In this document: piece by piece, positions 44,301 through 47,066 of the stretch
How positions within the stretch are numbered: position 1 is the stretch's first letter
Layout: the number at the start of each line of letters is the position of its first letter
Source of the DNA: a virus
Taxonomy: Duplodnaviria; Caudoviricetes
DNA length: 64,000 bases
Virus record (IMG/VR): IMGVR_UViG_3300044961_000667
Reading direction: 5' to 3' (one strand)
Program-made: the position numbers and the translations under genes
Notes under the pieces: model-generated
The model's input: the letters and a program-made list of their open reading frames with translations, nothing else
Databases searched by the model: none
What the model was told of the DNA's origin: nothing

Positions 44301-44657
44301 CTACTCCTTGCTCGACAGATCGTCGTCGTCGTCGGGCTCTTCAGAGGGCACCGCCGACACCGGAGTCGCTGGCGGGAGGTTCACCTGCAGCTTGGCCGCA
44401 ATGGCGTCCACCACCTTCGACGTGTGCCGGCTTTCCATCTGCATCGACATCATCAGCTTCTCGCCTCGGAGCGTGCGCTCGTCGACATGCTTCACGGCGG
44501 TCTTCAGTGCCGCCAGGTCCTCGCCGAAGCCGGCCATTTTGGACCTCATCTCGTGCATGTCCTCTTCGAGCTTTGCCACTCGCGAGGCCAGGCTGATGGC
44601 CGTCGGCTTCCGCTTTCTTGGGGCCGTACGGAGGCCCCTCCCTCTGGTGTCACGCAA
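44301..44657 (-). CDS. Coiled-coil hypothetical protein
   Basis: Heptads. Confidence 0.55.
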   Translation of the reverse strand: MRDTRGRGLRTAPRKRKPTAISLASRVAKLEEDMHEMRSKMAGFGEDLAALKTAVKHVDERTLRGEKLMMSMQMESRHTSKVVDAIAAKLQVNLPPATPVSAVPSEEPDDDDDLSSKE

Positions 44658-44768
44658 AGTCGCTCTCCGAAGAAGCGGTCCACGGTCGTGGTTCTCTCAC
44701 GGCCTGCTGTTGGTTGACTGCTCCATCTTTCGCCCTCTTCTGGGCATCCGTCAACTGTCACTGATGCG

Positions 44769-44839
44769 TACCCTCTCGGAATCGAACCGAGCACCGTCGG
44801 CTTAACAGGCCGCTGCTATCAACCAGACCAGCTCAGGGC
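44769..44839 (-). tRNA. tRNA-Asn(GTT), imperfect acceptor
   Basis: Loop CTGTTAA; good T-arm. Confidence 0.7.
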
Positions 44840-44847
44840 ACATCGTA

Positions 44848-44918
44848 CTGGGGAGGAAGGGATCGAACCTTCTCCGTCGGCTTCAGAGACCGCTGCGCTA
44901 CCCTTGCGCCACTCCCCA
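44848..44918 (-). tRNA. tRNA-Gln(CTG)
   Basis: Cloverleaf. Confidence 0.9.
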
Positions 44919-44930
44919 ATGTCTTTCGCT

Positions 44931-44996
44931 CAGGGGCCCTGGGAATCGAACCCAGCTCGTCGGCTTCAAAGGCCGACTCACTCCCTGAGTACCCCT
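44931..44996 (-). tRNA. tRNA-Gln(TTG), short D region
   Basis: TCGGC-CTTTGAA-GCCGA. Confidence 0.72.
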
Positions 44997-45001
44997 CCAT
45001 G

Positions 45002-45073
45002 AGCGGGTGGCGAGGATCGAACTCGCGCATCCTGGGTTGGAAGCCCAGAGCCTTTCCGCTTGGCTACACCCGC
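45002..45073 (-). tRNA. tRNA-Gly(TCC)
   Basis: Cloverleaf. Confidence 0.9.
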
Positions 45074-45076
45074 ATG

Positions 45077-45147
45077 TACCGCCGCTGGGGATCGAACCCA
45101 GTCCCTCCGCTTAAAAGGCGGTTGCTCTACCCTTGAGCTACGACGGC
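45077..45147 (-). tRNA. tRNA-Lys(TTT)
   Basis: Cloverleaf. Confidence 0.9.
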
Positions 45148-45186
45148 GCGTGGACCTGCGCCGTCGCGTTTCATCTTCGTCTTCAT
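45127..45186 (-). CDS. Mini-ORF MKTKMKRDGAGPRAVVAQG running into tRNA-Lys
   Basis: AAGGAG RBS; three Lys codons in the first six. Confidence 0.45.
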   Translation of the reverse strand: MKTKMKRDGAGPRAVVAQG

Positions 45187-45204
45187 CGTCGTCTCCTTGT
45201 CGAG

Positions 45205-45292
45205 TGGTGGGAAGGCTCGGAGTCGAGCCGAGCTGGGACGCAATGCCACCCGCTTTACAGGCGGGCCACGAGCCCTACGTGTCTACCTTCCC
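45205..45292 (-). tRNA. tRNA-Tyr(GTA), CCA encoded
   Basis: Cloverleaf with long variable arm. Confidence 0.88.
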
Positions 45293-45295
45293 ATG

Positions 45296-45366
45296 AGCGG
45301 CATCCGGGAATCGAACCCGGTTCAGTGGCCTGGCAGACCACGGCCCAACCAATAGACCAATGCCGC
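45296..45366 (-). tRNA. tRNA-Gly(GCC)
   Basis: Cloverleaf. Confidence 0.9.
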
Positions 45367-45448
45367 ATACGGCTTTGTCGCTGACGGCCGCGCAGATCCT
45401 CGTGCGGAATGCACGAAGGACTGAACGTCTGCCGGCGACAGAAGCCAG

Positions 45449-45519
45449 TGGGCCCTGAGGGGATCGAACCCTCTCCTGACGCTTAAGAGGCGCCTGCTCT
45501 ACCCTTGAGCTAAGGACCC
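45449..45519 (-). tRNA. tRNA-Lys(CTT)
   Basis: Cloverleaf. Confidence 0.9.
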
Positions 45520-45570
45520 AGATTCGGCCAGCCCGACTAGACGTCAGACAGGTGGCCGAACTGTCGCTGC

Positions 45571-45589
45571 TATCCAGTTTTCAGAGAAC
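45571..45589 (-). promoter_or_regulatory. rrn boxA-like element
   Basis: GTTCTCTGAAAACTGGATA resembles rRNA-operon GTTCTTTGAAAACTGAATA. Confidence 0.5.
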
Positions 45590-45599
45590 AGAACTGCGA

Positions 45600-45673
45600 A
45601 GCACCAGGTCGGGCTCGAACCGACGACCTGCGGTTTACGAAACCGCTGCTGCTACCTGCTGAGCTACTGGTGC
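45600..45673 (-). tRNA. tRNA-Thr(CGT)
   Basis: Cloverleaf. Confidence 0.88.
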
Positions 45674-45677
45674 ACTG

Positions 45678-45751
45678 CACGGCGAGCAGGAGTCGAACCT
45701 GCAGCGTCGGGTTTTGGAGGCCCGTTCCCTTCCCGTTGGGGACTTCGCCGT
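45678..45751 (-). tRNA. tRNA-Trp(CCA)
   Basis: Loop CTCCAAA. Confidence 0.85.
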
Positions 45752-45812
45752 ATACCGTTGTTCCTTTCCTTTTGACGAAACATCCTCTCGAAGACTGACC
45801 TGCGGTGGTGCA

Positions 45813-45852
45813 GAAAAGCGAAAGGCCGGGACCCTTTTGGGGTGCCCGGCCT
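45813..45852 (-). terminator. Intrinsic terminator upstream of the tRNA array
   Basis: AGGCCGGG-C-ACCC-CAAAA-GGGT-CCCGGCCT followed by TTCGCTTTT. Confidence 0.75.
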
Positions 45853-45879
45853 CCGTGAGCGATCCAATGTGCTACTGGA

Positions 45880-46050
45880 TCAGGTTCTCATGGAGCCGGG
45901 CCGTCGGTGGTCGCTGGTACCCAGATTCTGCTCGGGCTGATAGGCGACCACGCTTTCGACGGACCAAAGGCACGAACGCAAAAACGCCGGTCGAGCGGCC
46001 ATGGCCGCCCCGGCGATTCGCTTCGTCAGCGCTTTGGTTGAGGTCGACAT
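45880..46050 (-). CDS. Putative leader peptide (56 aa)
   Basis: Between promoter and terminator; last codons complementary to the terminator 5' arm. Confidence 0.5.
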   Translation of the reverse strand: MSTSTKALTKRIAGAAMAARPAFLRSCLWSVESVVAYQPEQNLGTSDHRRPGSMRT

Positions 46051-46078
46051 CGAAAGCACGTGCTCCTTGATGTCCAGC

Positions 46079-46108
46079 AGAGTACCCACCTGACGAATTC
46101 GCCGTCAA
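46079..46108 (-). promoter_or_regulatory. Sigma70-like promoter of the tRNA leader
   Basis: TTGACG-N18-TACTCT. Confidence 0.55.
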
Positions 46109-46130
46109 GCACCTGACGACGATTCTTCGA

Positions 46131-47066
46131 TCAGTACCAGCCCGCGGGGTTCAACGTCGGGTTGTTCTCGAACGGGTACTGCTCACCGCCACCCTCGTCG
46201 TCATCCTGCCAACCAGGAGCGCCCTGTTCCATCTCCGGGTCGGACTCGATGCTTCGACGAACTTCCTTCTCCATGAAGTCGGCGATCACCGCCATCATCG
46301 CCTCGTCGTCTTCAGCTCCCTGCATCGCGCTCACGAGCGAGCCCTCGTCCGAGTCGGCCTCGACCAGCATCTGGCCGTGGAGCTGGAACGCCTCGACGAA
46401 GTCGATCTTCTTCAGGAAGCTCTGCCACGCATCCCTCGCGTAGTCGGCGACCTTCTCCTTGAACTTGCCGGTGCCGATGTCTCGACCGCGGTAGAAACCC
46501 TTGAGAAAGGTCCTCGCGATCGACTTCGCGATTCCTCCGGCCACGTCGGAGACCTTCTTCTTCTCCTCGGGAGACGGCTTCTTCCCGGCCGCCGCCCCCT
46601 TGAGCGCCTTGGTCGCTTCCTTGGCTGCTTCGGGATTCTTGGCGACAGCCTTGGCAGCGGCCTTCTTCGCGCGGCCCTTGCCCTTCGCGACCTTCGCCTG
46701 ACCAGGGGCTTTCTTCGGGGCCGGCGCCTCGGCATCACCCTTCGGCTTGTCGACCTTGGTGGCCGGCTGCCCCTTCGGCTTCTTCGCGGAACCACCCTTC
46801 TCGGGCACCTTCTCCCAGTCGCCCTCCTTCGTCTTGACGAAGGTGCCCGCCTTGCGCTTCCGCTTCTCACCCGGCTTGGCGACGTTGGTGCCCTGGCCCT
46901 TGCCGGCGGCAGTCTTCGCCACCGACGGCTTGCCCACCGCGGTTCCACCCTTCTTCTGCAGCTGCGAGATCGGGATGAGCACCGGAGACGTCTTCACGTC
47001 GCGCGGGTACGGGCCCTTCTCAACGAGGGAACGCATCTGCTCCACGAGTGAAGAGAGGCTGCTCAC
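46131..47066 (-). CDS. Lys/Ala-rich protein, possibly head-internal
   Basis: SLVEQMRSLVEK leader; basic low-complexity middle; acidic tail. Confidence 0.65.
   Translation of the reverse strand: MSSLSSLVEQMRSLVEKGPYPRDVKTSPVLIPISQLQKKGGTAVGKPSVAKTAAGKGQGTNVAKPGEKRKRKAGTFVKTKEGDWEKVPEKGGSAKKPKGQPATKVDKPKGDAEAPAPKKAPGQAKVAKGKGRAKKAAAKAVAKNPEAAKEATKALKGAAAGKKPSPEEKKKVSDVAGGIAKSIARTFLKGFYRGRDIGTGKFKEKVADYARDAWQSFLKKIDFVEAFQLHGQMLVEADSDEGSLVSAMQGAEDDEAMMAVIADFMEKEVRRSIESDPEMEQGAPGWQDDDEGGGEQYPFENNPTLNPAGWY

Follow-up and report, generated by a model that had tools for sequence, protein, structure and literature searches.

The tRNA-Lys(UUU) gene of an uncultured phage is preceded by a mini-ORF with its own Shine-Dalgarno (SD) box and a single AAA codon, which reads across a hairpin sequestering the 5′ strand of the tRNA and stops within the tRNA itself, and this layout is kept in all 13 distinct versions of the leader that we compared. 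We propose, with moderate confidence, that the leader is a leader-peptide switch acting on tRNA folding and RNase P processing rather than on termination. The fuller form of the proposal, in which we see an even chance, is that the tRNA gates its own maturation: AAA would act as a one-codon sensor, folding and the RNase P cut would occur only when decoding fails, and the device might serve as a phage alarm against depletion of the PrrC or PARIS type. tRNA-Lys(UUU) would then probably mature only when ribosomes stall for want of tRNA-Lys(UUU). The switched element is proposed to be the tRNA's own acceptor strand, with no terminator involved. The usual assumption for bacterial and phage tRNA genes is constitutive processing.

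The mini-ORF and hairpin at the tRNA-Lys(UUU) gene

The window, by which we mean the whole 64,000-nucleotide stretch of DNA that was analysed, comes from an uncultured phage with a GC content of 64%. Its minus strand holds 38 tRNA genes and a tmRNA from 36.9 to 45.8 kb. The tRNA-Lys(UUU) cloverleaf scores 61.7 bits against RF00005 in Infernal, for which the gathering score is 29, and is that of a bacterial-type elongator, with an ordinary anticodon loop (CUUUUAA) and no encoded CCA. The gap from tRNA-Tyr to tRNA-Lys(UUU) is 57 nt, many neighbouring tRNAs being spaced by 2-12 nt. A G1.U72 wobble tops the acceptor stem and positions 27-43 are mismatched in the tRNA-Lys(UUU) of the window and of most relatives, with an additional U.U at 4-69 in L042; a weak acceptor stem would favour the leader lock described below. 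Contigs spanning the leader are present in the RNA libraries X8 and X16, as Logan contigs in which DNA carry-over is possible and from which transcription, RNA ends and processing cannot be read, and they contain zero variant letters across 45127-45217. The near-identical JGI contigs L001 and L002 end short of the locus.

The initial annotation had described an AAGGAG ribosome-binding site, a frame of ATG AAG ACG AAG ATG AAA reading into the tRNA, and a perfect 9-bp hairpin burying tRNA bases 1-7. The site and the frame are present where it placed them, and the two arms, at 45158-45166 and 45141-45149, are exact reverse complements. The leader codons of the mini-ORF are ATG AAG ACG AAG ATG AAA CGC GAC GGC GCA GGT CCA CGC, and the tRNA is entered at codon 14 (GCC GTC GTA GCT CAA GGG TAG), placing the final six sense codons and the stop within the tRNA. 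Boxes similar to AAGGAG also precede real genes of the window phage, and SD-plus-ATG sites in the 8.9-kb array region of the window number three: the mini-ORF's own, one within a tRNA and one further. Lysine codons in the genes of the window phage comprise 5 AAA and 184 AAG (5/189 AAA). The coordinates of the features are collected in the table.

Table. Features of the tRNA-Lys(UUU) leader in the window, with associated elements of the tRNA arrays
Feature	Position	Strand	Basis or remark
tRNA-Lys(UUU) gene	45076-45147	(-)	ARAGORN; Infernal RF00005
Shine-Dalgarno AAGGAG	45193-45198	(-)	sequence; 6 nt upstream of ATG
SD-ATG spacer ACGACG	45187-45192	(-)	complementary to tRNA nt 3-8
ATG of mini-ORF	45184-45186	(-)	sequence
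Mini-ORF MKTKMKRDGAGPRAVVAQG, 19 codons + UAG	45127-45186	(-)	sequence
AAA codon (codon 6), proposed sensor	45169-45171	(-)	2 nt 5′ of perfect 9-bp stem
UAG stop of mini-ORF, in tRNA D-loop	45127-45129	(-)	sequence
Hairpin 5′ arm (anti-acceptor strand) CGACGGCGC + one G.U pair	45158-45167	(-)	fold, complementarity
Hairpin loop, 8 nt	45150-45157	(-)	fold
Hairpin 3′ arm, contains RNase P cleavage site	45140-45149	(-)	fold, complementarity
Phage tmRNA, tag ANDNVEAAPMLAAA	37321-37700	(-)	within same tRNA array
~265-nt element of relatives	L027:7304-7567, L021:845-1113, L035:3551-3817	(-) for L035	75-81% identical between phages

The stem in the window comprises 9 perfect base pairs, or 10 counting the terminal G.U, and its 3′ arm is composed of leader nt -2 and -1 together with tRNA nt 1-7 (8). 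The hairpin segment folds at -21.1 kcal/mol, compared with -12.3 ± 2.4 for 200 dinucleotide shuffles (z -3.66, 0/200). When only the leader was shuffled against the fixed tRNA 5′ end, 29 of 1000 sequences folded as well and 62 of 1000 equalled the duplex, a weaker contrast in DNA of 64% GC. On its own, the window is therefore suggestive and modestly above chance, and it is conservation in the relatives that takes the case beyond chance. The spacer between the SD box and ATG forms a duplex with tRNA nt 3-8 of -9.6 kcal/mol, equalled by 29 of 500 shuffles, and by this predicted pairing it may be a second and distal binding partner for that 5′ strand. On the opposite strand, at 45141-45166(+), the palindrome followed by CGTTTCATCT scores as terminator-like; the plus-strand count of such sites is 1 against a shuffle expectation of 0.7 ± 0.8, and there are no plus-strand genes close by.

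The leader is conserved in diverged phage arrays and is specific to tRNA-Lys(UUU)

A pattern built from the tRNA D-arm and anticodon loop matched 20 loci in a metagenome scan: seven phage tRNA arrays with synteny to that of the window, and 13 unrelated tRNA-Lys genes, none of which has a leader. Further arrays were found through two array-flanking anchors, a VWA protein and a 235-aa protein, whose homologues were sought in Logan, ENA and JGI assemblies. The resulting 13 distinct leader versions are those of the window, L022 (identical to L018 and L025), L032, L027, L035, L021, L038, L039, L041, L042 (identical to L043), L044, L048 and L052 (identical to L053). Searches with tblastn of seven window proteins from around the array against six related loci gave zero matches, neither the VWA nor the 235-aa anchor protein of the relatives matches the window, and almost no flanking genes are common to the two groups of relatives. 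The upstream neighbour of tRNA-Lys(UUU) is tRNA-Tyr in some versions and tRNA-Lys(CUU) in others, and the sequence upstream of the SD box is unalignable among versions. In several relatives, for example, L038:6001-7578, a VWA-domain gene lies directly ahead of the array; in relatives at 62% VWA identity or below (L045) the array no longer adjoins it.

Searches of further collections delimit this distribution. Among the cultured phages of INPHARED there was no near match, only distant tRNA-level ones, and three cultured phages tried as comparators were set aside as not comparable, the matched gene being tRNA-Lys(CUU), which lies 4-6 nt past the preceding tRNA or, in Pumpernickel, past a 194-nt gap. 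In IMG/VR, neither the tRNA nor the leader motif nor two flanking proteins gave a match, except for one distant phage (L017, 65% identity in a 603-aa protein), whose tRNA-Lys(UUU) directly follows a protein gene and has neither ORF, hairpin nor any other leader. In GTDB genomes the tRNA pattern had no match. The leader pattern had five, which we read as chance: four are homologous, coding-like stretches of Actinokineospora and one comes from an alphaproteobacterial MAG, and no tRNA gene is found in any of the 8-kb loci. An Rfam cmscan of 44600-46200 (E ≤ 1) and of two relatives (E ≤ 0.1) returned only tRNA-type matches and no leader family.

Against this divergence, the ORF and the hairpin are kept in 13 of 13 versions. 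A GGAG, as GGAGG or AGGAG, stands 5-7 nt ahead of the ATG in each, and the order is always ATG, two to four variable codons, AAA, one variable codon, hairpin. The distance from ATG to AAA is 6, 9 or 12 nt and hence always a multiple of three, and the spacer between SD and ATG shifts by single nucleotides. AAA is in frame and invariant throughout, AAG is never seen in its place, and the codons on either side vary, the following one being CGT, CGA, CGC, CCG, CCA or CAG. The equivalent ORF of 16-19 codons is open through both hairpin arms and stops within the tRNA in all 13, with the UAG at tRNA nt 19-21 in 12 of them. The exception is L052, which has a quite different tRNA-Lys(UUU) body and has lost the D-loop UAG and kept the leader; past the stem its reading frame moves by 2 nt, and a UAG at tRNA nt 8-10 ends the ORF. 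In six of seven gene sets, 3-5% of the lysine codons are AAA, and in the smallest (L043) the share is 12%. AAA is decoded only by the U34 lysine tRNA, and a codon that is avoided in these phages and readable only by tRNA-Lys(UUU) fits the proposed sensor logic. At the level of sequence, conservation in the relatives supports the interpretation offered in the initial annotation, that the mini-ORF and hairpin could gate the folding of tRNA-Lys(UUU).

The hairpin, at -18.5 to -22.9 kcal/mol, starts 1-3 nt past AAA in all 13 versions and sequesters the tRNA 5′ strand in each. The 5′ arm of the 12 relatives, AGCUGCGG, base-pairs with tRNA nt 5-12 (CCGUAGCU), with an inner stem closing across leader nt -3 through tRNA nt 2 or 3. 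The inner stems differ by lineage (GCGAA/UUCGC, GCGAG/CUCGC, GCGAG/UUCGC, GCGU/ACGC, GCGA/UCGC and GCAGA/UCUGC) with pairing kept; the outer stem is invariant among relatives, as its 3′ side is fixed tRNA sequence. The window has the acceptor strand GCCGUCG where relatives have GCYYCCG, and a correspondingly different arm, CGACGGCGC, gives a stem of the same stability (-20.7 kcal/mol). Both the window and L052 have stem sequences of their own that match the leader bases just ahead of the tRNA, those of the window also matching the acceptor strand; judged by sequence, the window is a natural swap, and L052 is a second natural test of stem and stop conservation. In an alignment of 11 sequences, 94% of cells are paired in register, compared with 29-56% when the partner is slid. 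Covariation is weak, with an RNAalifold term of ~0 and, in the MAFFT register, a single pair in which both sides have changed.

Of 11 relatives tested, eight have an SD box, ACGGAGG(C/U), that is itself able to form an 8-bp duplex with tRNA nt 1-8, far better than that of shuffles, so part of the SD conservation could reflect RNA-RNA pairing. Such complementarity could act as a further lock, one that silences the mini-ORF as well, or it could be a by-product of pyrimidine-rich acceptor strands. L027, L041 and L048, like the window, have a good SD (AGGAG or AAGGAG) without complementarity to the acceptor strand, and it is because these relatives keep it without that pairing that we read the box as a ribosome-binding site.

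The combination is confined to tRNA-Lys(UUU). Across 334 tRNAs in 12 arrays, an SD-ATG ORF entering the tRNA together with strong anti-acceptor pairing occurs only at the 12 tRNA-Lys(UUU) genes. The few other SD-ATG matches have weak pairing and do not recur at the same tRNA across lineages, and the few other strong leader duplexes have no ORF. A covariance model built from 12 leaders gives one match per array and none in unrelated tRNA-Lys loci, and it recovers L052/L053, outside its training leaders, at 47.7 bits. In one array, the spacer before tRNA-Asn (L027:8252-8354) holds a separate SD-led ORF of ~29 codons that ends ahead of the tRNA and has no obvious codon match to Asn.

A proposed folding switch and alternative explanations

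Fold predictions offer tRNA nt 1-7 two mutually exclusive partners, the leader arm and the 3′ acceptor strand. For the free RNA, all 12 sequences are predicted to form the acceptor stem with a probability of 0.00-0.05. Most of the 12 have the leader hairpin in their minimum-energy fold, and in three the SD region pairs with the acceptor strand instead; an enforced cloverleaf is 3-15 kcal/mol worse in nearest-neighbour energies, which ignore tertiary structure and modification. When a ribosome footprint is masked at AAA, the acceptor-stem probability exceeds 0.85 in five of the 12 and rises partially in some others; the rest are predicted to engage the tRNA 5′ strand with the SD region rather than in the cloverleaf.

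Translation of the mini-ORF, a stall at AAA, the direction of the switch and the biological reason for it are inferred. In the OFF state, the segment after AAA in the free transcript would pair with the tRNA 5′ acceptor strand and, in relatives, also with nt 8-12; the acceptor and D stems would be blocked and the RNase P site buried, making the lock the default. With plentiful charged tRNA-Lys(UUU), the ribosome would decode the single sensor codon, cross the hairpin and leave at the UAG within the tRNA, and the hairpin would re-form. In the ON state, slow decoding would leave the ribosome paused with AAA in its A site, covering the 5′ arm. A ribosome with a codon in the A site unwinds ~5 nt and covers ~9-10 nt past the codon, so most of the 5′ arm would be spanned and the RNase P site would stay clear at ~14-17 nt. 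The freed tRNA 5′ strand could then pair with the 3′ acceptor strand to form the cloverleaf, leading to the RNase P cut and mature tRNA-Lys(UUU). Such a switch would be kinetic, with the RNase P cut as its irreversible step, and its net effect would be negative feedback on the sole AAA-reading tRNA.

Two reasons for such control can be suggested. U34 lysine tRNA is prone to slip on AAG codons, as described in the dnaX frameshift literature, and these phages use AAG roughly 8-37 times more than AAA; an excess of tRNA-Lys(UUU) could thus be costly, and the leader may keep a frameshift-prone tRNA low. It may also serve as a conditional counter-defence that replaces tRNA-Lys(UUU) destroyed by host nucleases, e.g., PrrC or PARIS AriB. 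It is speculative that an RNase P cut made during the wait at AAA would leave the ribosome on a stop-less fragment and create a need for trans-translation; the tmRNA of the window belongs to the same array.

The hairpin is the best-supported part of the leader, and it could be a processing or folding device by itself, one that delays or orders the RNase P cut or protects the precursor, with the SD-like box as a second partner of the acceptor strand and with the ORF and AAA unread. The 8-bp duplex of ACGGAGG(C/U) with tRNA nt 1-8 and the predicted minimum-energy folds that use this pairing are consistent with such an RNA-only element. We nevertheless judge it unlikely, as a good SD is kept without complementarity in L027, L041, L048 and the window, the ATG is invariant, AAA stays invariant and in frame and is never AAG despite AAG usage of 88-97%, and L052 keeps a stop within the tRNA through its frame shift. 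Since the ORF spans both arms in 13 of 13 versions and ends within the tRNA, each passing ribosome must remodel the fold, and any ribosome on the mini-ORF might open or reset the lock, tying maturation to general translation and leaving AAA, of which there is only one, incidental. Coupling of this non-codon-specific kind seems to us more doubtful than an RNA-only element: it does not explain why a codon making up 3-12% of lysine codons is fixed 1-3 nt before the hairpin with its neighbours changing, nor why the device is restricted to the AAA-reading tRNA.

We give little credence to the absence of any regulatory function, whether the leader is regarded as a chance palindrome in a GC-rich spacer, a decaying stub of a tRNA 5′ end from an endonuclease cassette, or a weak antisense terminator (hairpin then UUU on the plus strand). 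The window alone is marginally significant, its plus strand scores terminator-like, and the relatives' leaders contain a short direct repeat of tRNA nt 6-12 (CGTAGCT); against this stand the retention of the layout in 13 diverged lineages, the invariance of SD, ATG and AAA, the re-matched stem, and a terminator-like count equal to shuffle expectation with no plus-strand genes near. A shade less credible still is ribosome-free sensing resembling that of a T-box, in which the anticodon of mature tRNA-Lys(UUU) would bind single-stranded AAA and stabilise or destabilise the lock. AAA does fall, by prediction, in single-stranded RNA immediately 5′ of the hairpin, and what is regulated is the tRNA cognate to it, but the ~55-nt leader has no Stem I platform or T-box sequence and no T-box or other Rfam match, and conservation of SD, ATG and frame would be left unexplained. 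The least probable reading is that the mini-ORF encodes a functional peptide of 16-19 residues. Its length is conserved and an SCGA motif is common to 12 versions; however, the nucleotides of SCGA are invariant with zero synonymous change and are the 5′ arm of the stem, the C-terminal VAQG follows from the tRNA sequence, the window peptide is unrelated to the others, and the C-terminus of L052 differs. An RNase E site at AAA was also considered and rejected: such sites have a U-rich consensus, which the flanks GCAAACG and GAAGAAACC lack.

Comparison with known leaders and neighbouring features of the arrays

As in the trpL, hisL, pheL and thrL attenuators and pheM of the pheST operon, the proposed leader-peptide switch has a short ORF with its own SD and a codon cognate to the regulated product. 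In the trpL/hisL/pheM type, a paused ribosome masks segment 1 so that segment 2 pairs with 3 rather than with 1, and the leader is proposed to work alike: it combines an ORF with SD and start, a cognate codon and predicted mutually exclusive pairings, footprint masking lending partial support. The differences are that segments 2 and 3 here are the two acceptor strands of a tRNA, that the decision would be one of folding and RNase P processing, that the regulated gene is a tRNA, that a single codon rather than a run would be the sensor, and that the ORF ends inside the regulated RNA. The minus strand of 44900-45900 has zero terminator-like sites, the hairpin running into the tRNA D-arm with no U-tract. 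Without a terminator, the leader is not a member of the transcription-attenuator family, although its working would be attenuator-like.

Translational attenuation of ermC, cat and cmlA is likewise post-transcriptional, with a stalled ribosome melting a hairpin whose 3′ arm is the downstream functional element. There the 3′ arm sequesters the RBS of a coding gene; here no coding gene follows, the occluded element is the tRNA 5′ acceptor strand with the RNase P site, and the ribosome is proposed to stall for lack of one tRNA and not in response to a drug. T-box riboswitches are also cis-acting leaders that report the state of one specific tRNA through its codon. They exceed 200 nt, compared with ~55 nt here, the features of RF00230 are absent, and the SD, ATG and frame point to a ribosome as the reader. 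In addition, T-boxes control genes for aminoacyl-tRNA synthetases and amino acids, not tRNA maturation. In the literature on control of tRNA genes or precursors by leader peptides or ORFs, we found no relevant report and no precedent.

tRNA-Lys(UUU) is a documented target of PrrC, and T4 Pnk and Rnl repair the PrrC-cut tRNA-Lys (PMC10264068); it is also targeted by PARIS AriB, and a phage tRNA-Lys rescues T5 from PARIS (PMC11464382). The T5 tRNA-Lys and T4 Pnk/Rnl resemble the present case in that the phage supplies or restores a lysine tRNA hit by defence nucleases. The tRNAs in those answers are not known to be gated, whereas the supply here is, from its sequence, apparently conditional.

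If the proposed switch is real, leader-peptide sensing can act on RNA folding and processing, beyond termination or RBS exposure, and codon-specific feedback can run from the decoding activity of a tRNA to that same tRNA. Phages that have large tRNA arrays would then meter each tRNA individually, which would give a new angle on why they carry tRNA-Lys(UUU), the target of PrrC and PARIS. The element is compact, at ~130 nt, its sensor codon could be swapped, and the design is easily searched for upstream of other tRNA genes.

Several further features were observed in the arrays. A conserved non-coding element of ~265 nt, with stops in all six frames, follows tRNA-Lys(UUU) in L027, L035 and L021 (coordinates in the table), and a ~270-nt paralogue, 57-61% identical to the first copy, precedes tRNA-His(AUG), e.g., at L027:7641-7911. 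Compared with Rfam, the ~265-nt element gave only weak tmRNA-like fragments, and gaps of similar size are present in L041, L042 and L048. The tRNA-His(AUG), with A34, lies at L021:1456-1529, L027:7912-7985 and L035:3137-3210(-), also occurs in L041 and L043, and is carried on top of the normal GUG species. A four-base anticodon, CUGG, was called for the tRNA at L025:5224-5297(-). A boxA-like sequence (GTTCTTTGACATC..GAATAGCAGTGGTGAA) followed by a GC-rich hairpin occurs at 45520-45599(-) in the window and in the spacers before tRNA-Lys(CUU) or tRNA-Tyr in L022, L032, L035 and L021; these may be antitermination or processing signals within the array. A RelA/SpoT-domain protein is encoded a few genes upstream of the array at L039:1139-2587, L047:319-1575 and L052:322-1698, placing phage enzymes of the (p)ppGpp type next to an array proposed to be metered.
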